Positions 2,444 through 23,196 of a DNA stretch of 64,000 nucleotides are shown piece by piece. The first letter of the stretch is position 1, and every line of letters starts with the position of its first letter. The stretch is from NCBI GenBank assembly GCA_963727895.1, contig CAVSHT010000004.1:160001-224000 (forward strand), written 5' to 3'. Below the pieces are notes generated by a model that was not told the DNA's origin, did no database searches, and saw only the letters and a program-made list of their open reading frames with translations. A program made the translations under genes and the position numbers. This DNA comes from an uncultured Methanosarcinaceae archaeon (lineage in GTDB: Archaea > Halobacteriota > Methanosarcinia > Methanosarcinales > Methanosarcinaceae).

Positions 2444-3198
2444 GGCATTGATACTTAAACATAGTTATATACTATTAGAAAGTATATTTCTTAGAAAGTA
2501 TATTTCTTCATGAACTGCCCCAGATGCAATAGTTCCAGTCACAAAAAGAACGGTATAGTTGGTGGGCGTCAACGCTACAAATGCCATGATTGTGGATATA
2601 ACTATACAGTAGAGTTAAAATCAACTGCTTTTTCCGCCTCTGTTAAAAAACAGGCTTTACAACTTTACCTTGAAGGATTGGGCTTTCGTTCAATAGGAAG
2701 AGTTTTAGGGGTGAGTCATGTTTCTGTCCAAAGATGGATAAAGAAATTTGGTCAGTAGTTAGAGGACCTAAAAAGTGAAAATGAGATATCTATTGTTGAA
2801 ATAGATGAAATGCACACTTACATAGGTAACAAAAAAATATTGCTGGATCTGGATTGCTGTTGATAGAGTTGGGAAAAAGTTCATCAACTGCTCTTTTGGT
2901 AGCAGAGGAACGGAAACTGGAAAACTATTCTGGGAAAAATTGAAGAAAAAAGAGATTGGAGAAGTGATGACCGATTACTGGAGGGCATATGCAGAGTTTC
3001 TTCCAGAAACGATTCATACTCAATCAAAAGCAGAAACATTTACAGTTGAGGGATATAACAGCATATTGAGGCACTTTTTGGCAAGGTTGAGAAGAAAGAC
3101 AAAGTGTTATACGAAGAGTCTTGAAATGCTAAAGTACTCGGTTATTCCATTGATGAAATACAGAAATAAAGAACTAGATATATTTGAGTAACAATGCC
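2444..3198 (+). mobile_element. IS1-family element (copy 1, defective)
   Basis: IRs GGCATTGATACTTAAA / TTTGAGTAACAATGCC; InsA zinc ribbon CPRC..CHDC; GAG>TAG at 2756-2758; A7 instead of A8 at the slippery site; short duplication upstream of the ATG. Confidence 0.95.
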
Positions 3199-3592
3199 TA
3201 TTCTTAATTCAACTGGCTTTAGAAAGCAGTGTTATTTGTACGTTGAGGAGATGATTTTGCCTTTCTGAATCAAGGACAAAACAGTTACTATTTAATTTTG
3301 ATTACTTTGCGCTGTTTCTCAAATTAATTTTTTATCATTACTCTTGATTTATTTTATAAAAAATATTCTGAAAATACCTCTGTTATACATAATAATAAAT
3401 ATGCAATTATCTAAATACTGTTATACAAAACTTTCAAATTAACTACATAAATTTATCTTACGTTTCATTCATTTAAAATTTTTAATGATATTAAAAATTT
3501 AGCTATTATTAAATATAACTGTCATAGAAAAAATTCAAATTATAAATTTAATTTTAAAGCGATTATGATATATATTCAAATATCATTGAATT

Positions 3593-3704
3593 ATGCAGAT
3601 TGAGAGTAGGGTTTCTTCTTAATCTTTGGGTTGGATCGCAGGTAGGAATCCTTGAATAGGGACTTGGAATTCCTACCATCAATCTCTATACTATACATTT
3701 TTTT
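3593..3704 (+). ncRNA. Candidate small RNA (copy A of a two-copy element)
   Basis: 40-nt identity with 12771-12810 (inverted); hairpin 3641-3677; upstream ATATATAT box; T7 tract at 3698-3704. Confidence 0.5.
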
Positions 3705-3957
3705 AAGTTATTACTTCATTTTGTTAGCATTTTTATAACCAACTTTTAAAAATATTTTTTTAGAATATATATTTTTCTTATAGTGTGCCCACGTTTAATA
3801 AAGCTTATGATTTGTCATAGATTCCTGCATATTCCCGATCATCGGGTTTTAGGGTCAACTATACTTCTTGATCAAATTTTTCAGAAAATTATTTTCTCCG
3901 GAGTAATTTTTTGATCGGGGTAACAAAAATTCTAGATAACAGTATGGAACAGAATTG

Positions 3958-4772
3958 GGTTCCGTTGCAAAAAATTTCAAAATAAGCATGTAAATCTATA
4001 GACAATGAACAGAAGTTAAAATATTCAAGAAGATGTATCAATATTATAGAACTATTCCAAATAATTGATTAATATATTTAGCTTCATTAAGACCAGAGTA
4101 ATTTAGATTCTTGACTTGTCCTTTTTTAATCATATTCATCGCTTCAATTCCTTTTAAAGTTTTATTAGCAGATCGAAAAGACTGAAATCCTAACATTGGA
4201 TTAACTATTCGTTTAATGGATCTATGATCCTGTTCTATAATGTTATTCAAATACTTGATTTGTCGAATGCCTACGTTTATAGGTAGTATTTTATCATTTT
4301 TCAGTTTATTTATAGCAGGTGGATAAGCTGGATTTTTGTCAACTGTGATTACTCTTGGAATTTGATTATGATTAGAATTCAAAGCTTTCTTAAAGAAACG
4401 TTTTGCTGCTTTTTGGTCTCGTTTTGCACTTAACATAAAATCAATTGTATCTCCATTTGAGTCAACTGCTCGGTAAAAATATTTCCATTTACCTTTAACT
4501 CTGATATAAGTTTCATCAACTCTCCAAGAGTCGTTTGTTGGTCTTAAATGCCTTCTGACCTTCTTTTCGATTTCAGGAGAGTATTGATGTACCCATCTCA
4601 TAATATGGTTGTATGGTTGACTATTACTCCCCTTTCTGCCATCATTTCCTTTAAATTTCGATAACTTAATGGATATTTTAAGTACCATCTAACATTCAAT
4701 AAAATAATTTCACCCACAAAATGCTTCCATTTAAGGGATTAGATAGCATGTCATTATCCTTTACTTCCCTTT
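3958..4772 (-). mobile_element. IS6-family element; frameshifted transposase, left end replaced by IS21
   Basis: IR GGTTCCGTTGCAAAAAA at 3958; DDE motifs WRVDETY, ITVDK, NNIIEQDHR; ATG at 4749; 2-nt insertion near 4603. Confidence 0.92.
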
Positions 4773-6221
4773 TGTCAATGCCGGTTTACTTTTCCCCATT
4801 TTGTCCTGATTAATTTTCCCCACCTTGTGATATAAAGTTTACTCAATTTTTCATGAACTTGTTAAAAATTACTGGTATAGATTTCCTGTTTTTATACCCT
4901 GTTTTTTCCTTTCTTTCAGCCTGTAACTTTCCCCTTTGATATTAATCGTCGTAGAATGATGGAGAAGCCTATCAAGCACAGGTTCCATACTGTTACAGCC
5001 GCTATTACATGGTCCTTGAATATCTCTCCCATTCTCCATACGACTTATTCGATGTTAAGATCATTGAATTCCTTTCATAACGTCTTGAGATTAGCTGAAA
5101 TAAACAGTGAGTTCCTTCTTCGTCAAATGGGAGATATCCTATTTCATCAATAATCAGCACTTTATACTTTATCAAGTCCCTGAGTTTCTTTTCAAGCATT
5201 CCTTCTTGATTTGCTGTTTTCAACCTTTCAATAAGGTTTCCTGTATTGGTAAAGTAAACCGAAATCCCCGACTTTACTGCTTCGATTCCAAGAGCAATTA
5301 CAAGGTGAGACTTGCCAACACCTGGTGGACCAAAGAAAACAACATTCTCTGAATTATGAACAAATCTCAAGGTTGCAAGGTCTTCGATTATCTTCTTATC
5401 AATGGATTTCTGAAAATCAAAATAGAATTCCTCAAGAGTCTTTTTAACAGGAAAAACTGCACTTTTCATCTTTCTCTCAATTGCAACAGCTTCTCTGTGT
5501 TTCTTTTCCTGTTCAAATAGATAATCAAGAACTTCCATTGTTGTCTTGTTGTCCCTTACAACAATTTCAAGAAAGTTGTCAAGGAGCTCTTCAACAGTAT
5601 TCAGTTTCAGGTATTGCAGATTGTTGTGAAGCCTCTCATAGGTGAAGTTGTTCATTCAAAACCTCCCTGGCTAAATATTTCATAGACATCAAGAGACCTT
5701 TTTTCAACTTCAGGACCTGAGGATTTCAACGGAATCTGTGAATTTTTCTTGCATTTTGAGTTCTCTTTAAGAATCTCACTCAGTAAACCCTGGAAATGTT
5801 CCTTTTTCCTTGAAACTCTGCAGTTACCTGGGAGAATTGCATGTTCACAGATCTTTTCATAATCAACATAGATCTCTAATTTTTCTTCAAAAATATGAAT
5901 CTCTGCAGTTCTTCCTGCATACCTGTAAGGAACAGAATACTTATTTCCAAGAAATGAAATATAACAGTCTCTGGAGACCTTTCTGGTCTCCTTCTTAACA
6001 ACTTTGTAAGGAGGAACCTGACCCAGAGGGTTCAGGTCCTCCTCCTTAAAGCATTCAAGAGGGATTTGATAGGTTGTTCCATGGACAGTTGAATTTACTC
6101 TTTCTAACCAACTGTTAACTTGGCCATTCAGTTCTTCAAGAGAGGTAAACCTTCTTCCAAGGAAGAAATCCCTTTTGACGTAACCTACCGTATTTTCAAT
6201 TTTACCTTTTGTTTGAGGCCT
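4773..6221 (-). mobile_element. IS21-family remnant (istA 3' part 5652-6221 plus frameshifted istB ~4870-5655)
   Basis: TGTCAA terminus with repeated TTTTCCCCA; IstA PQTKGKIEN; IstB Walker A GPPGVGKS, IIDEIGY, and LDRLLHH..KGESYR in a shifted frame. Confidence 0.9.
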
Positions 6222-6375
6222 AAAAGGACAAGTCAAGAATCTAAATTACTCTGGTCTTAATGAAGCTAAATATATTAATCAATTATTTGGAATAGTTCTA
6301 TAATATTGATACATTTTCTCGAATATTTTGATTTTTTCATTATCCATAGATTTACATGCTTATTTTGAAATTTTT
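6222..6375 (+). mobile_element. IS6 3'-end fragment
   Basis: Near-identical to the 3' end of the IS6 transposase (KGQVKNLNYSGLNEAKYINQLFGIVL*) and its downstream region; the IR is decayed. Confidence 0.85.
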
Positions 6376-6442
6376 GAACTTGTCCGTTTTGTCCGTTTAT
6401 ACCGCATAGGATAAAATATACAACTACCGATAAATAGTTATT

Positions 6443-6652
6443 ATGGGAGGGGAGTTGAAACTGGAAAACAAAACGATAGAAACTGCGATAGCTAATGTGC
6501 TAAAAAGGTTGAACATTGCATATGTGGATGATACCACGTACAAACGGCTTGTTAACATTGGCTTACAGTATGATTATATTGAAAGTGAACTTTTAGAACA
6601 GATGCTTGAAACCGAATTGGTTATACTTAGTGGGGATTCTGAAAGCTTTTGA
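6443..6652 (+). CDS. Small acidic hypothetical protein
   Basis: 69-aa ORF lying between two IS6 end fragments; no recognisable motif. Confidence 0.45.
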   Translation: MGGELKLENKTIETAIANVLKRLNIAYVDDTTYKRLVNIGLQYDYIESELLEQMLETELVILSGDSESF

Positions 6653-6757
6653 AGTTGGGGTGTAATTTCATTTTTCTTATTTCTTTATTGTTTGTACTCT
6701 CAAATTAATTAGTTGATACTATCAAATTGTAAAAAAGCCGGATTTTATGCAATGGAA

Positions 6758-6838
6758 CTCATTTTCTTGAATATTTTAACTTTTGTTTATCATTCATAGA
6801 TTTACATGCTTATTTTGAGATTCTTTTGCAACAGAATC
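6758..6838 (+). mobile_element. IS6 right-end fragment
   Basis: Repeat of the IS6 3' non-coding region ending TTTTGCAACAGAATCC. Confidence 0.7.
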
Positions 6839-6920
6839 CTTAAAGGAGCTAATTATTTTCAACAGTATTTGTATATAATTTAAGATAATTTTTATATACA
6901 TTCTCTTTGTACATATTAGT

Positions 6921-7058
6921 ATGAAGTTTTTTAAATTTCCACTTTCGGTTTGGGTATATGTAGGCGGCGCTATTGCTTTGGGTGCTATAGGTCTAGTAAT
7001 TAATCACATAAGATCAAATAAAGTAAAATCTAAAAGAAAGGTCTCAAAACAAAACTGA
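6921..7058 (+). CDS. 45-aa single-TM small protein with Lys/Arg-rich tail
   Basis: MKFFKFPLSVWVYVGGAIALGAIGLVINHIRSNKVKSKRKVSKQN; TTTTATATA box ~23 nt upstream of the ATG (leaderless spacing). Not in the ORF track. Confidence 0.55.
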   Translation: MKFFKFPLSVWVYVGGAIALGAIGLVINHIRSNKVKSKRKVSKQN

Positions 7059-7346
7059 AAGTTGACATGCTTCAGAAGCAGAAAGCAGGATTTTTAAAAT
7101 TGGAATTATCAAGCTTAAAATGCAGTATTTTTGGTTCCGTTGCATAAATTTTCTTCTCACGCTTTGAGGCCATAATTGGCACCTTTATGTCCTATTTTTC
7201 TGAGTAATAAGAATGATTAATTGGTCATCGGTTAAGGAATCTGTTACCGTTAAAATAACTATTGAAATCCTTTATGCGTCTCGATTTCCATTTATAGGTT
7301 TACAGAAAAGGCAATGAAAATAACGCATTTCTTATAGATCATATTT

Positions 7347-7496
7347 GGTTCTGGTGCAAAAAATCTGGCTATTTTACAAAATTAATCAAATTCTTCACAT
7401 TTTGGAAAGTTAAACAAAATCTCACCAAAAAATTTGGCACAAAAAAGTAATTATTATATCCTTAAAGTCCGAGACGAAAATTTTTGCAACACAACC
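7347..7496. mobile_element. 150-bp IS6-type MITE (copy 1)
   Basis: IRs GGTTCTGGTGCAAAAA / TTTTTGCAACACAACC; inverted near-identical copy at 9272-9421. Confidence 0.85.
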
Positions 7497-7539
7497 ACTT
7501 TTTCTATATTCAGGAGCAGCTTCTAATATCTTTTTCACC

Positions 7540-8493
7540 TTATTTTGAAATCCAGTTTATATTCTTTTGAGCCATGAATCGATTAAAAGTGCTATAGTTG
7601 AATCCTGATACCCATTTTTGAATATGGTATCCAATTATAATTACGATCAAACTAGCAATAAAAATAACACAGAATTCCATAGGTCCAGTAACACCTAATT
7701 TATTATTAAGATATTTTACAACTGAAAGAAGAGGTTGATGAATCACATAAGTTGCGTATGACGACTGAGCTATATAATATATAACTTCTTGAACACTTAG
7801 AGGAATTTGCGAAAGATATGAGTGGGTTATGTTTAGTAAATTATATCTTCCAGCAAAAATCCCAATTAAAAAAACAGGATAATATAAATAGAATCTAGGA
7901 TCAAAAATATGGTACAGATAACATACAATATATATGCTTAAAGAAATAATGAATATTTCAATATCATCTCTTGCGTATTTTGCGATTATTGCATAAATAA
8001 CATAGTATACCATAATTGTGCCGACAAACCAATCTATATGTCCACCTCCTATATCCATATCAGCTTTAAAAAACCCATGAATTCCTGTCAGTTGATACAA
8101 TAATCCCATAAAACTAAAAAAATTTTCAGTATAAGGAGCAGGGTTAATATGAAAAATCCCAAATATAATGAACTCAAATAATAATCCAATCCACCATATA
8201 GGATAAATTCTGGTGACTCTTTTTTTAAAGTATTGAGTTATACCTTCCTTAGTTTCAAGACTTTTATATCTGCTAGAAAGAGTGTATCCAGAGGCAAAAA
8301 TAAACATTGAAAGCCCTATATACGCAAAAGTAGGACCAAAATATGCATAATGAAGTGATGGATATACATCCATCGAAAAATTTAAAAAAAATCCTAAATG
8401 AGATAATATGATTAATAAAATAGCACACTTTAGAATATCAATTTCTATAAGCTTTTTTGTATTGTAAGATGTTACAGGGTCAAACTTAGACAT
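7540..8493 (-). CDS. Acyltransferase-3 (OafA/YrhL-like) membrane O-acyltransferase
   Basis: IDILKC.AILLIILSH, FIFASGY, YFKKRVTRIYP, WFVGTI..YY, SYATYVIH motifs; multiple TM helices. Confidence 0.85.
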   Translation of the reverse strand: MSKFDPVTSYNTKKLIEIDILKCAILLIILSHLGFFLNFSMDVYPSLHYAYFGPTFAYIGLSMFIFASGYTLSSRYKSLETKEGITQYFKKRVTRIYPIWWIGLLFEFIIFGIFHINPAPYTENFFSFMGLLYQLTGIHGFFKADMDIGGGHIDWFVGTIMVYYVIYAIIAKYARDDIEIFIISLSIYIVCYLYHIFDPRFYLYYPVFLIGIFAGRYNLLNITHSYLSQIPLSVQEVIYYIAQSSYATYVIHQPLLSVVKYLNNKLGVTGPMEFCVIFIASLIVIIIGYHIQKWVSGFNYSTFNRFMAQKNINWISK

Positions 8494-8908
8494 CTTCTCA
8501 TTCTCCTTAGTAGTACGGAGTAAAATAATTTCTGATCAGATATGTCACCAAAAATCTTAAATCAGTGTCATTAGCAAAGTTTTAGTCTTTTAATCTTCGT
8601 GTCCACAGACCTCCTGCAGTAACAACACTCAATGAAAACTCCCGAGGAATTCCATATTTCCATTGGACTTTGATAGTTGAATGATGAATACTCAGTATTC
8701 TCTTCAAATTGTATGGGTAAAAGTAAATTTCATGCATTTGCTGAAAATTTAAAAATTTAACCAAGTCTAAAAAACAACCTCAAACGATGCATTCAACTTT
8801 ATAACTGTACGATAAAATTGTTGTATATTTTTCGAGTTGGAAACTTCTCCATTGAATTTGAAGAGGATACCAAATTTGCGACACCGCGAAGAAAAAGAAA
8901 AGGAACAA

Positions 8909-9151
8909 TTATCTGCGCTTTACTGTTTTCTGTGCTGATTTCTGTGCTGTTTTCTGTGCTGCACGCTCAGCCTTAACTCTTGGTGCCTTCTTTGAATTTT
9001 GTTCTTTATGTGATCTAGCTTTATCAAAGATCGATGCCTTTTCCGGAGAATATGTTATCATTTTCTTTCTATTTGCATCATCATTCGCCTTTTTAGATTT
9101 CTTTTTGGTTTCAGTTTATTCTTTGCCTAAAATCTTTCTCAATATGCCCAT
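8909..9151 (-). pseudogene. Small basic protein with in-frame TAA at codon 12 and three 12-bp AQK(T/S) repeats
   Basis: GGAGG upstream of the ATG; MGILRKILGKE*TETKKK...AAQKTAQKSAQKTVKRR. Confidence 0.45.
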
Positions 9152-9271
9152 TTTCTAAACCTCCTTTGCTTTCTTATACATACCTATTTCCATTAATTAG
9201 CTTATTTTCTAAGAGCGTGTTTTAAAATTCATTCTCATAAAGGTTTTCATTTGTATTCGGTTAAAATATGA

Positions 9272-9421
9272 GGTTGTGGTGCAAAAATTTTCGTCTCGTA
9301 CTTTAAGGATATAATAATTACTTTTTTGTGCCAAATTTTTTGGTGAGATTTTGTTTAACTTTCCAAAATGTGAAGAATTTGATTAATTTTGTAAAATAGC
9401 CAGATTTTTTGCACCAGAACC
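9272..9421. mobile_element. 150-bp IS6-type MITE (copy 2, inverted)
   Basis: Reverse complement of 7347-7496 with two substitutions. Confidence 0.85.
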
Positions 9422-9482
9422 GAATACTGCAATGGATAAAGGTCCGCAATTTGATTGGGACCAATTAAAAATCGGAGTTAAC

Positions 9483-10472
9483 TCAAGAAATAATGATATT
9501 AGCAGTCCCTTGAAGATCTATTACTTCATAGGATTCCACTGCTCCTTTAACAAGGCCTTCTCCACCAATAGTTGTTTTACTAGTTGTTCGGATCGCTATA
9601 GTCTTAAATTCTTGTGCTGAATTATCAAGATTAATGTCAGGCACTAACAAAGTCAGTGTTATAGTATGAGAATCCGAAACACTTTGTAAGGTCACTGTCA
9701 CTATCGTACCTATTTCCGTTTTTTGTGTTCGGATTTCATCTCCTGTAAAACTGCGCATACCTTTTGAATCCTCATAGCTGAAAAGAGGTTTACCTGTGAT
9801 GCTAGTTGTCGAATAGCTTATATGTACATCTTTATGCTTTTTTCCAGTTCCATTTAGAACAAATTGGTTTGGTTCATTGATTTTGCTGTCAGAAGTCATA
9901 TTCTGTCCTTTAATCTTTTTTGAAAGGTTGTTTGATGAGATAATATTGTTACAATTAAATGCCGTACCAATTAAATTAGTTATAACATACGATTCAGCTT
10001 GCCCAATACGAGCCGAAGAAGGGAGGGAAGCAGCTTTGTAAGAAGTTGTAATACCGATTGTATGAAACGACGCTGAGGTATTTTTCTTATTTAATAAATT
10101 AACTTTTGGAAGTAAAAAGGTAAATAATGGCTGAGGTGGAGCACCTGGTATAGGTTTTAAAGTGCCCAGAGTGATACTAACCAAAGTACCGAGTTCTGGT
10201 ATGTCGACGCAATGTATTTCTTTATTGGTAAAATGAAATGTCCCAAATTTTTTATTATTATATACAAGATTTGACACTGCACCTGGACCCATAGGTGTAT
10301 ACATCACGCTGATACAATTGCCACTCAAGTGATATTGATATGGATTAATGAATTTTATTTCTGTCGTTTGGCATGATGGAGCCAAAGAAGATGCACCTGC
10401 TGACGCAGCTGTTAGTGATACTACAAATAAGACAACCAGCAAAATAGCCAGTGTTCTTTTTTCTCTGCTCAT
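9483..10472 (-). CDS. Secreted protein with two tandem beta-rich domains of unknown function
   Basis: Signal peptide MSREKRTLAILLVVLFVVSLTAASAGA; internal repeat (EI....ELGTLVSITL / EI....EIGTIVTVTL; TFLLPKVNL / TLLVPDINL). Confidence 0.75.
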   Translation of the reverse strand: MSREKRTLAILLVVLFVVSLTAASAGASSLAPSCQTTEIKFINPYQYHLSGNCISVMYTPMGPGAVSNLVYNNKKFGTFHFTNKEIHCVDIPELGTLVSITLGTLKPIPGAPPQPLFTFLLPKVNLLNKKNTSASFHTIGITTSYKAASLPSSARIGQAESYVITNLIGTAFNCNNIISSNNLSKKIKGQNMTSDSKINEPNQFVLNGTGKKHKDVHISYSTTSITGKPLFSYEDSKGMRSFTGDEIRTQKTEIGTIVTVTLQSVSDSHTITLTLLVPDINLDNSAQEFKTIAIRTTSKTTIGGEGLVKGAVESYEVIDLQGTANIIIS

Positions 10473-10589
10473 AAAAATTCATCCCTTGTCAACTACTTTC
10501 AGTGTTTTTGTCACTTGTAATTCACTTTCAATCACTAATAAATAAAAATGTTGTGATGTAAAACTGTGAATGTATTATGAAAAAACATC

Positions 10590-11331
10590 GGTTTTGATAA
10601 TTAATTATAGTTATATACTATTAGAAAGTATATTTCTTCATGAACTGCCCCAGATGCAATAGTTCCAGTCACAAAAAGAACGGTATAGTTGGCGGGCGTC
10701 AACGGTACAAATGCCATGATTGTGGATATAACTATACAGTAGAGCTAAAATCAACTGCTTTTTCCGCCTCTGTCAAAAAACAGGCTTTACAACTTTACCT
10801 TGAAGGATTGGGCTTTCGTTCAATAGGAAGAGTTTTAGGGGTGAGTCATGTTTCTGTCCAAAGATGGATAAAGAAATTTGGTCAGGAGTTAGAGGCTCTA
10901 AAAAGCGAAAATGAGATATCTATTGTTGAACTGGATGAGATGCACACTTACATCGGTAACAAAAAAAATATTGCTGGATCTGGATTGCTGTTGATAGAGT
11001 TGGAAAAAAGTTCATCAACTGCTCTTTTGGCAGCAGAGGAACGGAAACTGGAAAACTACTCTGGGAAAAAGTGAAGAAAAAAGAGATTGGAGAAGTGATG
11101 ACAGATCACTGGAGAGCATATGCAGAGGTTCTTCCAGAAAAGAGTCATACTCAATCCAAAGCAGAAACGTATACTGTTGAAGGAGATATAACAGCATATT
11201 GAAGCATTTTCTAGCAAGATTGAGAAGAAAGACAAAGTGTTATACAAAAAGTCTTGAAATACTAAAGTACTCGGTTATTCTATTGATGAAATACAGAAAT
11301 AAAGAGTTAACTATGTTTAGTTAACAATGCC
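10590..11331 (+). mobile_element. IS1-family element (copy 2; insB frameshifted, variant left end)
   Basis: insA 10640-11074; A8 slippery site; 2-nt insertion near 11184; right end TAACAATGCC. Confidence 0.93.
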
Positions 11332-11334
11332 TCC

Positions 11335-11655
11335 TTTTACTTTAATGTAAGTTTCATCAGCTCTCCACAAATCGTGTGTTGGTCTTAAATGTTTTCTGAT
11401 CTTCGTTTCTATTTAAGGGGAATATTGATTCATCCATCTCATTATTGTACTGTGATCAACTTGAATTCTTCTTTCTATCATCATTTCCTTTAAATTTCTG
11501 TAGCTCAATGGTATCTTAAGTACTCATCTTACGTTCAATAAGATAACTTCACCTACAAAGTGTTTTCATTTAAAGGAATTAAATAGCATATTACTGCTTT
11601 TTATTTCCTTTTTATTTTAGTATATCCCTAGCAGATATTTTTTGCGACGGACTCC
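11335..11655 (-). mobile_element. Decayed IS6 5' fragment
   Basis: Translates in pieces as the IS6 transposase N-terminus (MLFNSFK*KHFVGEVILLNVR...DETYIK); degenerate IR TTTTTGCGACGGA. Confidence 0.75.
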
Positions 11656-11791
11656 TATATATCAATAATATATTTCAATGCATGTATATATATAACATGA
11701 GCTCTATATATAAGTATTAAAAGATATACTGTTATAGTATTTTCTATTTTTAGAGTGATTAAGCTACTGAAAAATAACATGAGGAATATTT

Positions 11792-11980
11792 ATGGAGTTT
11801 ATAGATTCTTCGATAACATTTAAGCAAAAAAATTTAGTAATAAAGTCTCTTAATTATATGGAGAGGCATAAAAAAATTAGTCAGTGTTGCAAAGAACATT
11901 GCAAAAAGAGCTGGACTGACTTATCCTTTGATGAGGCAAATAACTTAATCCAGATGCTTGACAAGATGGCTTGGAGGTAA
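11792..11980 (+). CDS. Small hypothetical protein
   Basis: 62 aa; GAGG upstream; TATA-rich region upstream. Confidence 0.45.
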   Translation: MEFIDSSITFKQKNLVIKSLNYMERHKKISQCCKEHCKKSWTDLSFDEANNLIQMLDKMAWR

Positions 11981-11991
11981 CTATTCTGATT

Positions 11992-12040
11992 GGTGCAAAA
12001 AATCTGATTTTGTAACAAAGCCAGATTTTTTGCACAACGG
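11992..12040. repeat. Collapsed IS6-MITE-like palindrome
   Basis: GGTGCAAAAAATCTG...CAGATTTTTTGCAC; both arms match the end of the 150-bp MITE. Confidence 0.6.
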
Positions 12041-12078
12041 AAAAAGGACTAATAGGATGCAAAACAAACAGTGATATC

Positions 12079-12324
12079 ATGTTACCTGAAAAAATGGCTC
12101 GGCAAATGTACGCGAAGAATCGTGAAAAGATAATTCAACATGCACGAAACGCACGGCGTGGATACTTTATTGTGAATTTTTATAATAATTATGATGTGAA
12201 AATAAGCTCTGAGAAAGATGATAAATCAGAGTTCAGCTTTCTCATACCTAGCGCGCTTGAATTTCTAGATGTTAAGTTTAACAAAGCATTGACTGATTAT
12301 CTTACTTATGGTAAAAATTATTAA
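12079..12324 (+). CDS. Small hypothetical protein
   Basis: 81-aa ORF with ATG start; no motif recognised. Confidence 0.5.
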   Translation: MLPEKMARQMYAKNREKIIQHARNARRGYFIVNFYNNYDVKISSEKDDKSEFSFLIPSALEFLDVKFNKALTDYLTYGKNY

Positions 12325-12449
12325 TAAGCCTTTGACTCAGGCGAAATAAGGAAGAATGGACACAACGTCTAAGAGGAAACTATAGTCACAAAAAGGTAGT
12401 GTATCAATTTTTCTGTAAATTTACCCTACGGTTTATGCATAGGTTTTGT

Positions 12450-12600
12450 GGTTCCATTGCAAAAAAAATAGTTCTGCAATTTGACACTATAATTTTCACC
12501 TTTTTCATATCAGTTTCTCCTGTATAAAAATGATTAACTTTCCGAATTGTGATGGTTTTTACTGATTTTGTGAATAAGCCATATTTTTTGCAACGGAACC
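12450..12600. mobile_element. 151-bp IS6-type MITE (second family)
   Basis: IRs GGTTCCATTGCAAAAAA / TTTTTTGCAACGGAACC; interior differs from the 7347 MITE. Confidence 0.8.
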
Positions 12601-12699
12601 CGGAGTTCAAAATAAGGTTCAGTATAAAGCATGGCTGACCTGGAAAAGGTTATAACATGCTTGTGCAACGAATTGATTGAACCTAAACAGGAGCAGAAG

Positions 12700-12829
12700 A
12701 AAAAAATTCAGAATTTCTGGAGATCAATTTAGAAGTAGATGGTAGAGTTTTGAGTCCCTATTCTCAAATCCCTACCTGCGATCCAACCCAAAGATTAAGA
12801 AGAAACCCTATTACTCTTAATCTATACAT
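12700..12829 (-). ncRNA. Candidate small RNA (copy B of the two-copy element)
   Basis: Inverted homologue of 3593-3704; hairpin 12741-12776; TATA-like box ~12845-12853; T7 tract on the minus strand at 12700-12706. Confidence 0.5.
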
Positions 12830-13014
12830 TTATAATAGCACGGTTATATATATCATCATTGATATCAAAAATTGTTTCTAATTTAAAATTGCAATATAAT
12901 TAAATAATTATATTACATAACATATTTTAATGGTGTAAAAATAAAATGCATTAAATTATATTTCGTTTAAAAACAATTTATTAGATAACTTATTTAATAT
13001 AATTTATAATATTG

Positions 13015-13185
13015 CTATGTGCTGGAGTTGGGAAATCGAGATGGGGTATCACCAAAGTAAAAGAATCTCCTTGAGGTTGCTGATCTTTCTTCGAACCTTT
13101 GCTTGGGGGAGCATAACTTCGGGAGACTGTATTGGGGGATACAGTAGCTACAGCACTTCTGGGCTTCTTCTTGCATTACATCTTT
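13015..13185 (+). ncRNA. Candidate multi-hairpin structured RNA with GGG(G)A loops
   Basis: GC-rich island in AT-rich DNA; closing stem GTGCTGGAG/CTACAGCAC; hairpins TGCTT-GGGG-GAGCA and ACTGTATT-GGGG-GATACAGT. Confidence 0.5.
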
Positions 13186-13609
13186 AATTTGACATAAGTT
13201 GTCAATTTATATAGTGATTCCTTACAAAAACACTTTCTGTCGGCATAGAATTTTTTGGAAAAATGAAACTATCAAAAATCAAAGAATGTAGTCTATAAAT
13301 TACAGTTGTAACAAAATATAACCATGTGGCTGATTTATTCATCATAATATTTATGTTTCTGTCAAATTAGGGTTTCATATTCAAGACTCTGTATCAAATT
13401 TAAAAATGAAAATTCAAGGATTTTATTCATGAAATATCTGAAAATATGTCCAAAATGAAATGCTAACCTGAAATTGCATTCAGATGGTGAGACTCAGTGT
13501 GATATTTGCAGTTACTGGACAAAAGTAGGTACAACAAAACTTGATCCAATTATTTTACGGATGAGGAGTTTGCATGAAGAATACCTAGATTTTTGATATC
13601 TTCTGGTCG

Positions 13610-13822
13610 TCATTGATTTTGTGAATGTTCACCACGGACTTTTTTTAACTGGTAAATACTGGATCTACTCAGCCCTGTCTTTTTTGTGATCTCAGTTTGT
13701 AGCATATCTCTATCAACATATAGCATGAAAAGTTTAAGTTTTTTAATAGATTTCAAATCCAATCCGGTTTCTTCAATCTTCGTACCGTTCAAAACCTCTC
13801 GATAAGCATCGGCTACGCTCAT
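13610..13822 (-). CDS. Small helix-turn-helix protein coupled to the recombinase gene
   Basis: QTEITKKTGLSRSSIYQL HTH; its ATG overlaps the recombinase stop (TGATG). Confidence 0.65.
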   Translation of the reverse strand: MSVADAYREVLNGTKIEETGLDLKSIKKLKLFMLYVDRDMLQTEITKKTGLSRSSIYQLKKVRGEHSQNQ

Positions 13823-14389
13823 CACCTTAAAATTCCCCACTCAGTAAGTCTCTTTTCAATATCTTTCATTTCATAATCTGTAAAACTTAAACTCTGATAG
13901 TGCCTTAATGACGTTACTGGGTCGTGTCCCTGTCTACTGTAAATCTCAATTTCCGGTATTCCAGCTTTAAGCATCCATGACTCTATTGTTTTCCTGGGAG
14001 TCTTCGGGCCGACTTTCGGGCTTATATCTGCTTTCTCAGACCACCTGCTAAGGTTATCCCACCAACTTGTACGATCTGGAGGTCTTCTACCTTCCTGAAA
14101 TGCCTTAATTAGATATGGAAAAGTAGTGGGAAGTTTGTCAATAGTGCGCTTTGGTGCTTTCTGTTTAACCTTCTTCTGAGCTTCCTTTGGGAGTATAATT
14201 TGATTCCTGCTCTCAATGTACCATGATGGATTATAATATAATCTTTGTAATTCGACATAGCGAAGTCCCGTAATTGTGTTAAGTTCAAAAATAAGCTTAA
14301 ACTTTGCAGGTATCGCCTTAACAAATCGATCATACTCTTCGACAGTTAACACTTTTAGTGCCGTCTGCTGTTATTAATCCATTTTCTAT
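13822..14389 (-). CDS. Minimal tyrosine recombinase/integrase (5' end apparently damaged)
   Basis: TGLRYVEL, KTPRKT, GHD...SLRHY catalytic motifs; the upstream frame ATA-ENGLITADGTK joins after a one-base shift near 14353. Confidence 0.8.
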
Positions 14390-14408
14390 AAAAATCCCTT
14401 CAAAAAAT

Positions 14409-14447
14409 AGTATACCAACGTTCTATAAATACGTTGGTTTTTATACT
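14409..14447. promoter_or_regulatory. Palindrome spanning the recombinase TATA box
   Basis: ACCAACGT-TCTATAAAT-ACGTTGGT with outer AGTATA/TATACT arms. Confidence 0.5.
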
Positions 14448-14759
14448 TTGTTTTCTAACCCAGTATTAAAAAGATATTTAATTTTTACTCGTTGCTGCCA
14501 TTTTTGCTCTGGCACCATAATCAGAAATACGAACTTTCGAAGTTAAAAACGTTCATATATCAAAAAAGTACAAAGTACGTATACTTTCTTCTTTGGGTAC
14601 TGTGTTGATGAGGTTTAATCTCTTTATAGAGATCACCAAATGCCGAAAATTTATCCAAGACCCCATAGACTACATGTACTCTACTCTTCGAATAGGGCTA
14701 AGTTCCAACTGCGAATAAAATCTACTAAAGATCTATAACACCTAATGGCGATTATATAT

Positions 14760-15030
14760 ATGAACATTGAGCAGAAAAAAATAATAGAAAAATCGATTTT
14801 ATTTAGTGTCATATTTATTGTCTCAACTATATTTATATACTACATTTTTTTTTGCACAATTTGTGCCAACTTCTTATTCTCATACAGTGGAATATGCAAA
14901 TGGAACAAATGGAACAAATGTAACAACGTATGTTGACTCCGCAACAGATTTATATGAAAATATTTTTGTCCTGGTTTCAGGCATCATCGGTTGTGCTTTA
15001 GGAATTATATCTACTAGAATAATTAAATGA
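14760..15030 (+). pseudogene. Small two-TM membrane protein, frameshifted at a T-run near 14845
   Basis: ORFs 14745-14936 and 14806-15030 join into TM-loop-TM at the T9 run. Confidence 0.45.
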
Positions 15031-15122
15031 CTGATTGTACTAAACTCCCAATTGACTTAAGTGATCTATAACTGTCATAGTCTTTTTTTCAAAAAGACTT
15101 ATATTTTCCATTTAGTAACACC

Positions 15123-15981
15123 GGTTCCGTTGCAAAAAATCTCAGAATAAGCATGTAAATCCATAATCAATAACCAAAAGTACAAATATTCAAAAAGATG
15201 TGTCAATATTATAGAACTATTCCAAATAATTGATTAATATATTTAGCTTCATTAAAGCCAGAGTAATTTAGGTTTTTGATTTGTCCTTTTTTAATCATAT
15301 TCATAGCTTCAATTCCTTTTAAAGTCTTAATAGCTGTGTTAAAAGACTGAAATCCTAACATTGGATTAACTATTCGTTTAATGGATCTATGATCTTGTTC
15401 TATAATGTTATTCAAATACTTGATTTGTCGAATGCCTACGTTTATAGGTAGTATTTTATCATTTTTCAGTTTATCTATAGCAGGTGGATAAGCTGGATTT
15501 TTATCAACTGTGATTACTCTTGGAATTTGATTATGATTAGAATTCAAAGCTTTCTTAAAGAAACGTTTTGCTGCTTTTTGATCTCGTTTTGCACTTAACA
15601 TGAAATCAATTGTATCTCCATTTGAGTCAACTGCTCGGTAAAAATATTTCCATTTACCTTTAACTCTGATGTAAGTTTCATCAACTCTCCAAGAGTCGTT
15701 TGTTGGTCTTAAATGCCTTCTTACCTTCTTTTCGATTTCAGGAGAGTATTGATGTACCCATCTCATAATATGGTTGTATGGTTGACTATTACTCCCCTTT
15801 CTGCCATCATTTCCTCTAAATTTCTATAACTTACTGGATATTTTAGGTACCATCTGACGTTTAATAAAATGATTTCTCCTTCGTAATGTTTCCACTTAAA
15901 GGAATTAGATAGCATATTATCGTTCTATTGATTTTCTCCTTATTCAATTGAATCCTTATTATGATTTTTTGCAACAGAACC
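15123..15981 (-). mobile_element. IS6-family element, full length, frameshifted transposase
   Basis: IRs GGTTCCGTTGCAAAAAA / TTTTTTGCAACAGAACC; same 2-nt insertion as the 3958 copy. Confidence 0.95.
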
Positions 15982-16144
15982 AAACAATATCTCTCCAGAT
16001 ATATGCGGTTTTTAACTTTTCAGAAAAACTCTCAATAGATAGAACATGCTCCTGTAAATATAAATATTATACTATAATTATAATACTCACCGAATAACAT
16101 AGAGATATTTCCAAATTAGAAATAGAAATGGGGGATGGGAACAT

Positions 16145-17362
16145 ATGACAAAAAAGAGTATTTTATACTTAGTATCCTTTACTTCAGCAATCCTTGTTTG
16201 TTTTTTAATCATCGGCTCATCGGCTACCCTGGCAACTAACGAACAAAATGTATCACATAAAGATTCATCAAACAATAGTAAATTTCCGTATCCGCGTGGT
16301 ACAGTCCCACCATATGGATATATGGGATGCGAAGCAGATAACACATGCATATCAGGTAACGCAAAGCTTGTTCACTTTGGATGGACAGCTTCTATAACTC
16401 CACAAGAATTTGTTGATAATGTTACAAAAGCCAAAAAGTTGGGGGTTTCAAATTATCTAATCGTTCCCGGTGGTCCAGAAATGAGTAGCGAAAATTTCTG
16501 GAAAGAAGTCAAAGAGCTGGGAGTTACTGATAAAGATTTCTTTGGGGTTTATTTCCCTGACGAACCAACCGATCCTGCTAAAATCATTGCCATGCATGAA
16601 GCTATGAAAAAATATTTCCCCAATACTGTTGCTGGCGATTATTTAGGTGATATGGCAAGTAATGGAAGTACAAAATTTATTCCAGGCCTGGATATTGCCT
16701 TTTTTACCGGATATACGATATTTCATGACCGTCCACACGCCTGGACTTATGGCAACCTTATTACTAATGAACCTGCCTGGAAAAAAGCAGGAAAAACAGT
16801 GTACTTAACAACAGAAACATTTGGGAATGCCTGCAAAATAAATTCATCCAATCCAGACTTAAATACTTCACAAAAAGTGAGTGATCGACAGACAAGTCAG
16901 ATCGTTATGGGTATTTTGGGAGGGGCTCAGGGTGTTTTCTCATATGCAAATAAATATGCAAAAGATACTCCTTGCGATACTGGATGGGCTAGCTTCAGGC
17001 CAAGATATGAACAGGTCTGGCCCTGGATAATAAACGGAAACAGGACACTTCTGACAACAAAAGTAACCAGCGGCAGAACAAACATAAATTCAGATCCTGG
17101 TGGCACAATTTCTGCAGTTACAGCTTACATCTTTACCGATGCAGACGGTAGGAAATTAGTTGCATCATCCAGTATGCTCGATTTTATTGAAGCAAATGGT
17201 GTGGTGAATAAGGCAACAATTACCGGCGTGCCAAACGGAATATATGATGTCTTATGGGAAAACAGAACCGTGAATATTACCGATGGGGCAATTAAAGACA
17301 CCTGGAAACCATATAAGTATCATTTTTACCAGTTAAAAGTAAATGATACTGGTAAAGAGTAA
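16145..17362 (+). CDS. Secreted protein, possible glycoside hydrolase-like TIM barrel
   Basis: N-terminal signal/TM segment; FFGVYFPDEP, VYLTTETF, ILGGAQGVFSY pattern; beta-rich C-terminus. Confidence 0.6.
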   Translation: MTKKSILYLVSFTSAILVCFLIIGSSATLATNEQNVSHKDSSNNSKFPYPRGTVPPYGYMGCEADNTCISGNAKLVHFGWTASITPQEFVDNVTKAKKLGVSNYLIVPGGPEMSSENFWKEVKELGVTDKDFFGVYFPDEPTDPAKIIAMHEAMKKYFPNTVAGDYLGDMASNGSTKFIPGLDIAFFTGYTIFHDRPHAWTYGNLITNEPAWKKAGKTVYLTTETFGNACKINSSNPDLNTSQKVSDRQTSQIVMGILGGAQGVFSYANKYAKDTPCDTGWASFRPRYEQVWPWIINGNRTLLTTKVTSGRTNINSDPGGTISAVTAYIFTDADGRKLVASSSMLDFIEANGVVNKATITGVPNGIYDVLWENRTVNITDGAIKDTWKPYKYHFYQLKVNDTGKE

Positions 17363-22375: not shown

Positions 22376-23196
22376 AAAAATATTAAAGTTATTGTATATT
22401 TAAAAAACTACTGATATTTATTAGAAGACAAGTTAAAGAGAATAACAACAACATTTAAGTAAAGATATTATAAACAGATCTTTTGGAGATCTAAACGTTT
22501 CATGGTAAGAATAACGCAATAACGCCCAAATGGTGAACAACATCAAGACCAAATAAGCAACTAAAGATTAGAGTACTTATTGAGCTTATTACGAATGTAT
22601 TGTAATTAGCTACAAAAAGTGCAACAAAAAAGCCTATGATTTAAATTATTCTAATATCTCCATTCTTTTTTACAAACAATTTAAACTCATCCGCAATAGG
22701 AACTGGATCTATTTTTTTAGTATTGATGTTGGGATATAAAACTCTAACTTTCTCAACGAGCCACCGAAAATACACAATGTTTTGAGATATATTTAAAACC
22801 CCGACAACTACACAATACCCCCAGGATAATTTTTATATAATAGTAATGGGTAATAAGAATCCGGTTGCTTATGAGAAAATACTAAAAGCCTCATTTCACA
22901 CACCAGATTCAAAAGGATTATTATGAAGGATAAGTTTCATCCCCTTCTTCTTGTCCGTTTATAATCGTTTTCTCGTAAGCAACTATCCTTTCCATATTTT
23001 TATAAATCTAAAATTCAGGTATTCCTTATTATAGTCCTGATTGTAAGAAATTCACTTAAATCTCTTAACTGCCCTGTTCTCTCATATATCTGTGTAAATT
23101 TTCCATATAATCTGCTTTTTTTTCAACTTGAATTCAATATAAGACCGAAGAATAAGACCTATTATTTAAATATCGACAGCTCTATTTAGTATCAAG

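Follow-up and report, generated by a model that had tools for sequence, protein, structure and literature searches.

Sequence and predicted structure place a repeated element of an uncultured Methanosarcinaceae archaeon in the sRNA41 family of Methanosarcina mazei

sRNA41 of Methanosarcina mazei is a small RNA (sRNA) that is down-regulated under nitrogen limitation (PMC5867862) and represses translation of ACDS by masking ribosome-binding sites (RBSs) in polycistronic mRNAs, as described in the accessible parts of two articles (PMC5867862, PMC9170634). Here we analyze an element that occurs twice in a 64,000-nt stretch of DNA (the window) from an uncultured Methanosarcinaceae archaeon (GenBank assembly GCA_963727895.1, contig CAVSHT010000004.1, positions 160,001 to 224,000), once on the plus strand (copy A) and once on the minus strand (copy B). 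An earlier reading of the letters alone (the sequence-only reading) had seen in it an independently transcribed sRNA family of ~110-130 nt, with a small hydrophobic peptide as the alternative. Judged by sequence and predicted structure, both copies are members of the already described sRNA41 (spRNA41) family. We consider it likely that they are separate transcription units, each specifying an RNA that would regulate by base-pairing in trans.

Short motifs of the element, sought in the accessible supplements of PMC11456600, led to three catalogued sRNAs of M. mazei Go1, all on the minus strand of NC_003901.1: spRNA41 (3812382-3812475, 94 nt), sRNA145 (3870821-3870917, 97 nt), and sRNA146 (3871088-3871270, 183 nt). 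When the printed sequences were aligned by eye, all three carried the first stem-loop (SL1), the linker, the second stem-loop (SL2), both loops, and the 3' tail of the element. By hand count, spRNA41 differs from copy B at ~11 of 95 positions (~88% identity), with loops, linker, and tail identical. We take spRNA41 to be the sRNA41 of Buddeweg et al. (2018, Mol Microbiol 107:595). The Go1 homologues are abundant, with 725-1471 reads per kilobase per million for spRNA41 and 7,282-17,345 for sRNA146 in the RNA data, and their translation efficiency is given as 0.1-0.4 (PMC11456600, accessible supplements). From their shared parts, sRNA41, sRNA145, and sRNA146 appear to form one multi-copy family; no statement that they do was found in the accessible texts.

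The comparison with Rfam for which the sequence-only reading had called placed the element in no Rfam family. At the gathering threshold over the window, the element has no match and the only hit is sRNA154, elsewhere in the window; at an E-value threshold, the interval 12600-12900 gave only chance-level small nucleolar RNA matches (11.9-17.4 bits against cut-offs of 40-55). An independently transcribed sRNA of the proposed length is supported by an invariant promoter box, a covarying structure, and the abundant catalogued homologues in Go1. What did not survive is the novelty of the family: the element matches a known sRNA, an outcome that the sequence-only reading itself had named as telling against its proposal.

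The two copies share a 40-mer, at 3607-3646 (+) and 12771-12810 (-), that an exact string search recovered at these two sites only, with 0 mismatches, as first described; none is expected by chance (100 shuffles of the window). Homology between copies A and B at the element is confined to ~95 nt, their wider flanks are dissimilar, and terminal inverted repeats are absent, again as first described. The box ATGATATATAT lies upstream of both copies (3565-3575 in copy A, 12857-12847 in copy B) and ends ~21 nt before the conserved AGAUU at the RNA start. Its presence had been noted correctly and its spacing had not: it lies 31 nt, rather than 20-25 nt, before the 40-mer. In a six-copy alignment it belongs to an invariant block that resembles an archaeal BRE/TATA-type (TFB recognition element and TATA) box, ATTATGATATATAT in copy A (3562-3575, +) and ATGATGATATATATA in copy B (12845-12859, -). 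Position, ~21 nt before the conserved RNA start, and homology to the Go1 genes mark the copy A box as a putative promoter. The box is invariant in 6/6 genome copies, and oligo-T runs are present. The T7 tracts reported downstream are indeed found at 3698-3704 (+, copy A) and 12700-12706 (-, copy B). Termination at oligo-T is established in archaea, and on this basis both tracts are probable terminators.

The conserved RNA core spans 3594-3690 (+) in copy A and 12728-12826 (-) in copy B and scores 87.6 and 120.6 bits, respectively, with the covariance model R1 described below. SL1, a hairpin overlooked by the sequence-only reading, is formed by AGAUUAAGAG paired with CUCUUAAUCU, and its loop also displays AAUAGGG. 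In the predicted fold of copy A, SL1 pairs 3597-3606 with 3616-3625 around the loop UAGGGUUUC, the linker CUUUGGGUUGGAU occupies 3624-3636, and SL2 extends over 3641-3677 with the loop AAUAGGGA at 3655-3662, followed by the 3' tail. Copy A is the weakest of the six copies, with a loop 1 shorter by 3 nt and a deviating tail. In copy B, SL1 pairs 12823-12814 with 12801-12792 around the loop UAAUAGGGUUUC (12813-12802), and then come the linker CUUUGGGUUGGAU (12793-12781), SL2 (12776-12741) with the loop AAUAGGGA (12762-12755), and the tail AUCUACUUCU (12740-12731); here the fold is joined by the pair counts that follow. Copy B also holds a 21-codon reading frame, MYRLRVIGFLLNLWVGSQVGI (12764-12829, -), the counterpart of the Go1 small open reading frame (sORF) for sP41.

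For the structural analysis we aligned 36 copies (A3), wrote the secondary structure by hand, and built R1 from them. The 47 R1 matches from 35 loci were realigned (A4), with one locus (L007) excluded as a duplicate of another (L004). In A4, 97.0% of cells form standard pairs, a share that drops to 38.7-49.7% once the partners are shifted by 1-3 columns. Ten of the 28 pairs are changed on both sides, compared with 3.8 ± 1.2 in shuffles, and none of 500 shuffles reaches the observed number; the two-hairpin structure is thus conserved, and the covarying hairpin that the sequence-only reading had described is confirmed. Most of the covariation resides in the upper SL2 stem, where two pairs change from UA to CG in 15 sequences each. 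It is this part that diverges between copies A and B, with pairing kept around AAUAGGGA, as had been observed. SL1 contributes one pair that changes from AU to GC in four sequences, and the outer helix (UGGAU with AUCUA) has double changes at two pairs.

The window's own genome (G000; 3.67 Mb in 19 contigs, 84% complete) holds six copies by BLAST with copy A, so the element is a two-copy one inside the window only. They lie at C4:163.6 kb (copy A), C4:172.8 kb (copy B), C4:383.4 kb, C9:165 kb, C9:281 kb, and C5:184 kb. An nhmmer profile recovers the same six (E from 2e-43 to 6e-34) and two chance-level matches; R1 also returns these six, together with one weak cousin scoring 24.6 bits. At the level of the genus, 51 of 59 genomes yield BLAST matches to the family (35 of the 39 of good quality), 1-14 in each, often clustered 450-700 bp apart. 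The best match to copy B outside its own genome, at 91% identity, is in G051. Searched over 151 genomes of the taxonomic family, R1 matches 42; by genus these are 33/34, 2/2, and 6/6, so that three of the 16 sampled genera are positive, and no match was found in the other 13. Abutting head-to-tail dimers occur in at least 12 genomes. Among the genera sampled, the family is limited to Methanosarcina and two sister genera.

In the mechanism that we propose, each unit would consist of the invariant BRE/TATA-type box, the ~95-nt RNA core, and an oligo-T run 10-25 nt beyond it. The 5' part of the RNA would fold into SL1 (10 bp) and the 3' part into the long SL2, joined by a single-stranded linker rich in G and U, CUUUGGGUUGGAUCGCA, and both loops would present AAUAGGG. 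The RNA would pair in trans over translation-initiation regions of mRNAs and block access of the ribosome, which is the published mechanism of Go1 sRNA41 on ACDS (cdh). The copies, the promoter box, the covarying structure, the homology to the Go1 sRNAs, and the complementarity to candidate targets are observed; that the RNAs are transcribed here, where they begin and end, and whether they regulate is inferred.

Several observations weigh against this proposal. No transcript was seen in this organism. The only two public RNA runs that contain part of the region, both sediment metatranscriptomes (5% of sampled words), cover the insertion sequence (IS) genes at 4.0-4.9 and 10.4-11.7 kb of the window and not the sRNAs: depth is 0 in the bins 3300-3636, which hold the first 43 nt of the copy A core, and 12736-13072, which hold most of the copy B core, and low in the adjoining bins with the rest of each core (3637-3973 and 12399-12735). 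This coverage pattern is uninformative on sRNA expression. The published ACDS targeting is not prominent here. By cofold gain, the four cdh start regions take only places 692, 933, 1587, and 1882 among 2,966; their values lie between -7.0 and -4.2 kcal/mol, the background mean being -5.25, and a match drawn by hand comprises 8 bp, CCUCUUAA with UUAGGAGG, at cdhA and cdhC. The calculation is crude and concerns the single cdh operon of an 84%-complete assembly, and we do not take the failure to reproduce ACDS targeting as evidence against the published biochemical result. The C/U-rich UUUCCUCUUAAUCU, a possible partner for a Shine-Dalgarno sequence (SD), sits in the 3' arm of SL1, where covariation shows it to be paired. 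Ribo-seq (ribosome profiling) curation marks small ORFs on spRNA41 and sRNA146 as translated (PMC11456600, accessible supplements). Finally, the pair counts derive from an alignment fitted to the model and are biased towards the structure; the slid controls and the independent observation of the hairpin by the earlier reader argue that the covariation signal is real.

A candidate target emerged from a crude duplex scan, which retrieved an mRNA complementary to the linker over 13 nt without a mismatch (the C3 site). In the genome, the exact 13-mer AUCCAACCCAAAG occurs at six sites, comprising five of the sRNA genes and C3:313569 (-); copy E, C9:426928 (+), and five unrelated sites are one mismatch away. 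The C3 and C9 sites lie directly before the SD GGUGAU of genes for secreted beta-helix proteins with a signal peptide. Their domains are Beta_helix (PF13229, E = 5.7e-13) and Pect-lyase_RHGA_epim (PF12708), and full-length relatives in other genomes contain the disaggregatase-related repeat (PF06848, E = 7e-88). Both mRNAs also carry AACCCUAUU, the complement of loop 1, at +21 to +29, and the C3 gene has UCCCUAU, the complement of loop 2, at -32 to -26. The three boxes are ordered as antiparallel pairing requires. In the predicted duplex with the C3 mRNA, loop 2 (AUAGGGA) pairs with UCCCUAU, the linker CUUUGGGUUGGAU pairs with AUCCAACCCAAAG at -21 to -9 and reaches the SD, and loop 1 (AAUAGGGUU) pairs with AACCCUAUU. 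Aligned with the antisense of the C3 region, copy B scores 53, while 500 shuffles average 23.1 (standard deviation 3.9) and never exceed 40.

RNAduplex over 47-nt start windows was dominated by long loop-rich artefacts, and its unusable ranking was replaced by the cofold gain, calculated in this genome for the 2,966 start regions that have an SD-like motif and open an ORF of 70 codons or more (mean -5.25, standard deviation 2.77). For copy B, the C3 gene ranks 1 of 2,966 with a gain of -23.6 kcal/mol and the C9 gene ranks 2 with -19.7 kcal/mol, followed by the next best start region at -16.5 kcal/mol (rank 3). Copy A has gains of -17.7 and -21.4 kcal/mol on the C3 and C9 mRNAs. With up to two mismatches allowed, 55 of the 59 genomes in the genus contain the 18-mer ATCCAACCCAAAGGTGAT, and a reversed control occurs 0-1 times per genome. 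At 32 inspected loci, 39 of 40 sites precede genes of the beta-helix family or duplicates thereof; the remaining one (L065, two mismatches) is unrelated. Of the 39, 31 belong to main genes and eight to upstream tandem duplicates (~140 nt, with an ORF of 28 to 46 codons). Thirteen of 13 cognate sRNA/target pairs from other genomes fold into the same duplex at the linker-RBS and loop-1 contacts, with gains of -8.5 to -18.9 kcal/mol (mean -14.65). In one sister genus, the linker of the sRNA is GGGGUUGGA, and in distant homologues of the gene the SD is preceded by UCCAACCCC or UCCAAUCCC; this linker/target difference amounts to one co-varying position and one wobble. We tentatively propose, at somewhat less than even chances, that the sRNA41 family acts as a multi-copy trans-antisense regulator of these secreted beta-helix genes and would clamp their RBS by three collinear contacts.

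The beta-helix pairing is a computational prediction, and some findings speak against it. The whole -20 to +100 region of the genes is highly conserved and the boxes are not singled out, so their conservation is inseparable from general conservation or gene conversion. Two genomes without the canonical sRNA (G020 and G021) keep the RBS box and have lost the AACCCUAUU box, which is also lost in genes of two genomes that have the sRNA (G004 and G018), and the co-evolution signal between sRNA and target is therefore ambiguous. The duplex requires SL1 to open. The Go1 counterpart of the main gene is MM_1118, and it shows no significant change with nitrogen in the accessible supplements of PMC11456600 (RIBO log2 fold change -0.47, adjusted p 0.46). 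No literature joining disaggregatase with an sRNA was found in a search that did not extend to the target lists of the primary sRNA41 paper, and the papers found on MM1118/disaggregatase include no sRNA work by title or abstract. With the 322-aa target protein as query, no homologue at E ≤ 1e-10 was found in three genomes of the sister genus g13.

Some further observations concern the target genes and the origin of the family. The 5' module of RBS box, start codon, and AACCCUAUU is duplicated in tandem ~140 nt upstream at eight loci (L041-L043, L054, L057, L062-L064) and in G000 at C9 ~426.8 kb (L038). In Go1, sORF_128 upstream of MM_1118 (14 codons) appears to be such a duplicate; it is marked as translated by Ribo-seq (PMC11456600, accessible supplements). 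In genus g13, two loci (L114, G084:C1 ~2593283; L116, G096:C86) have their own TATA-like box and units, arranged in tandem, that join the complement of the linker to GAUCCAACCCCAUGGAUUGAGAGGAAA, which resembles an SL1 arm. Possible readings are a sponge, the leader of a target, or a copy that has been rearranged. At G000:C3:313498-313585 (+), on the strand opposite the 5' region of the top predicted target, lies an nhmmer match to the sRNA at chance level (E = 1.2), which would fit an origin of the sRNA family from the target region by inverted duplication.

If the main product were instead a 21-aa hydrophobic peptide, sP41, the RNA would be its mRNA, possibly a leaderless one. The peptide alternative of the sequence-only reading is right in that the peptide corresponds to the published sP41 and has an ATG frame on copy B; it fails on copy A, which lacks that ATG frame, and on conservation of the frame. 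The Go1 sORF on spRNA41 (3812414-3812479) is curated 'yes' for Ribo-seq in the accessible supplements of PMC11456600, and sP41 was verified by liquid chromatography-mass spectrometry in 2015 according to the introduction of that article. Translated by hand with 15 printed upstream nucleotides, this sORF gives MYRLRVIGFPLNLWVGSKVGT, in the same frame as the copy B peptide and identical to it at 18 of 21 positions. Like sP41, for which translation is reported, the 21-codon frame of copy B may yield a peptide. Of the 47 aligned copies, 20 keep an in-frame start at -6 (16 ATG, 1 GTG, 3 TTG), but four others have only a TTG at +3, as copy A does, and 23 have neither start; even the G051 copy, the closest to copy B beyond its own genome, lacks a start codon. 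Ten copies (L003, L005, L012, L020, L024, both copies of L034, L027, L030, and L032) have 1-nt indels or early stops in the frame, and the nucleotides downstream are still conserved. Frame length varies from 4 to 42 codons with a variable C-terminus, and only three of 45 full-length copies have both an ATG and a frame of 21 codons. Copy B has a start and an intact frame, copy A does not, and the frame is not conserved across the family. Because start codons are missing and frames broken while the nucleotide sequence is kept, selection acts on the RNA, and coding cannot explain the conservation of the family. The compensatory variation of SL2 is likewise at the RNA level. The Go1 sORF opens 4 nt ahead of the 5' end annotated for the sRNA and has a translation efficiency of 0.1-0.16 (PMC11456600, accessible supplements), and peptide fragments gave 0 matches in the 11 supplement files of that article that were searched. 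We therefore regard sP41 as an unlikely main product.

The same AAUAGGG(A/U) motif in two hairpin loops, the head-to-tail dimers, and the abundance of the Go1 homologues would also suit a decoy for an RNA-binding protein, in the style of CsrB/RsmZ with their repeated GGA motifs in hairpin loops. CsrA (PF02599), however, has 0 matches in this 84%-complete genome, although the controls in three bacteria respond, and no gene for a partner protein is conserved beside the copies. Since the loops and linker have a collinear complementary partner in mRNAs, their invariance is explained without a protein, and a decoy is very unlikely. Least likely of all is that the copies are functionless fragments or passengers of a mobile element, such as the interior of an IS or of a miniature inverted-repeat transposable element (MITE). 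The region is rich in IS genes, IS1-like ORFs lie near four of the six copies, and a MITE-like repeat is inserted beside copy B; but the copies lack terminal inverted repeats, the homology of A and B stops at the element, the IS1-like ORFs vary in orientation and distance, and promoter, structure, and covariation are kept across three genera. A type I toxin-antitoxin system was also considered and rejected: the ORF is not conserved, and the divergent neighbour element does not overlap the sRNA.

The IS content of the window, named from translations, comprises IS6-like, IS21-like, and IS1-like transposase ORFs and an integrase-like ORF. Pairs of IS1-like ORFs (window 2491-3210; also at L002, L003, and L006) are found 0.4-1.1 kb from four of the six copies; insertion into these AT-rich intergenic regions may be favoured. 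Among 35 inspected loci there is no constant protein-gene neighbour; ORFs for PAS-domain sensors lie near the sRNA in ten, a decarboxylase gene in six (one orthologous cluster), and IS1-like ORFs in four, all in this genome. Copies B, C, E, and F have a further 300-640 bp upstream of the promoter in common, which hold a second conserved RNA-like gene. Beside copy B this partner element is divergent from it (13021-13185, +), with hairpins that carry UUGGGGG loops and its own TATA-like box at ~12993-13009. It accompanies the sRNA in 19 of 36 locus records (35 distinct loci, L007 repeating L004), has indels that are not in threes, resembles spRNA12, and is a homologue of Go1 sORF_294, a frame of 53 codons marked 'yes' by Ribo-seq (PMC11456600, accessible supplements). 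Between the partner element and the remainder of the conserved upstream block, at ~13184-13374, lies a ~190-bp repeat that looks like a MITE and has more than ten further BLAST copies on other contigs.

As a discovery the element is ordinary, being already catalogued in M. mazei. Its multi-copy nature, with 1-14 BLAST matches per genome and tandem dimers included, means that paralogues could mask the phenotype in single-gene deletion studies, and the non-conserved sP41 frame bears on the debate about which 'spRNAs' truly code. The loops and linker fit the disaggregatase-related start regions far better than any other in this genome. If true, the predicted pairing would tie a nitrogen-responsive sRNA to enzymes thought to govern the switch of Methanosarcina between aggregates and single cells, would account for the invariance of linker and twin loops within the RNA, and would offer a testable handle on aggregate dispersal, the control of which is poorly understood (PMC12369344, accessible text).

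Go1 sRNA41 is like copy B in its ~95-nt core, its hairpins and loops, its own promoter, and its 21-codon frame. It differs in that it is one named gene, whereas this genome has six paralogues, that copy A is without the ATG and has a loop 1 shorter by 3 nt, and that the reported ACDS targeting does not stand out in the calculation for this genome. Go1 sRNA145 and sRNA146 would belong to the same family as paralogues; ~170 nt separate them on one strand, an arrangement reminiscent of the clusters and tandems of copies found throughout the genus. They carry the SL1 variant AGAUUGAGAG/CUCUCAAU, the source of the compensatory pair, and sRNA146 differs in its longer annotation (183 nt). Go1 sRNA085 shares the architecture of the family, with an SL1 of the type CGAUUAAGAG/CUCUUAAUCG, the linker GGGGUUGAAUC, and a long second hairpin; it differs in its loops, AAGGGGUUU and CAGAGGUGGCA, and in being single-copy. 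R1 scores this type weakly (24.6-38.1 bits), and it is the sole R1 match in the five R1-searched genomes of the genus without the canonical family. A distant cousin in this genome (L039, G000:C9:341212-341314, -), with similar architecture and other loops, matches the sRNA085 type.

The window also holds sRNA154 itself (Rfam RF02906, 94.8 bits) at 22862-22995 (+), 10 kb from copy B; this match puts the organism within M. mazei or close to it. This M. mazei sRNA acts via loop sequences, one of which masks an RBS (PMC5867862, accessible text). The nitrogen-fixation sRNA of M. mazei, it resembles the sRNA41 family in the action described through loops and in a link to nitrogen regulation; its sequence is unrelated, and of the two only sRNA154 has an Rfam model. 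In Escherichia coli, two loops of OxyS contact the fhlA mRNA at its RBS and inside the coding region and form a kissing complex. The geometry predicted for the sRNA41 family and the beta-helix mRNAs resembles this arrangement in that loops of the sRNA contact separate sites of one mRNA. It differs in that OxyS-fhlA is bacterial and unrelated in sequence, and in that the contacts predicted here are three and collinear, with a linear duplex of 13-15 nt at their center.

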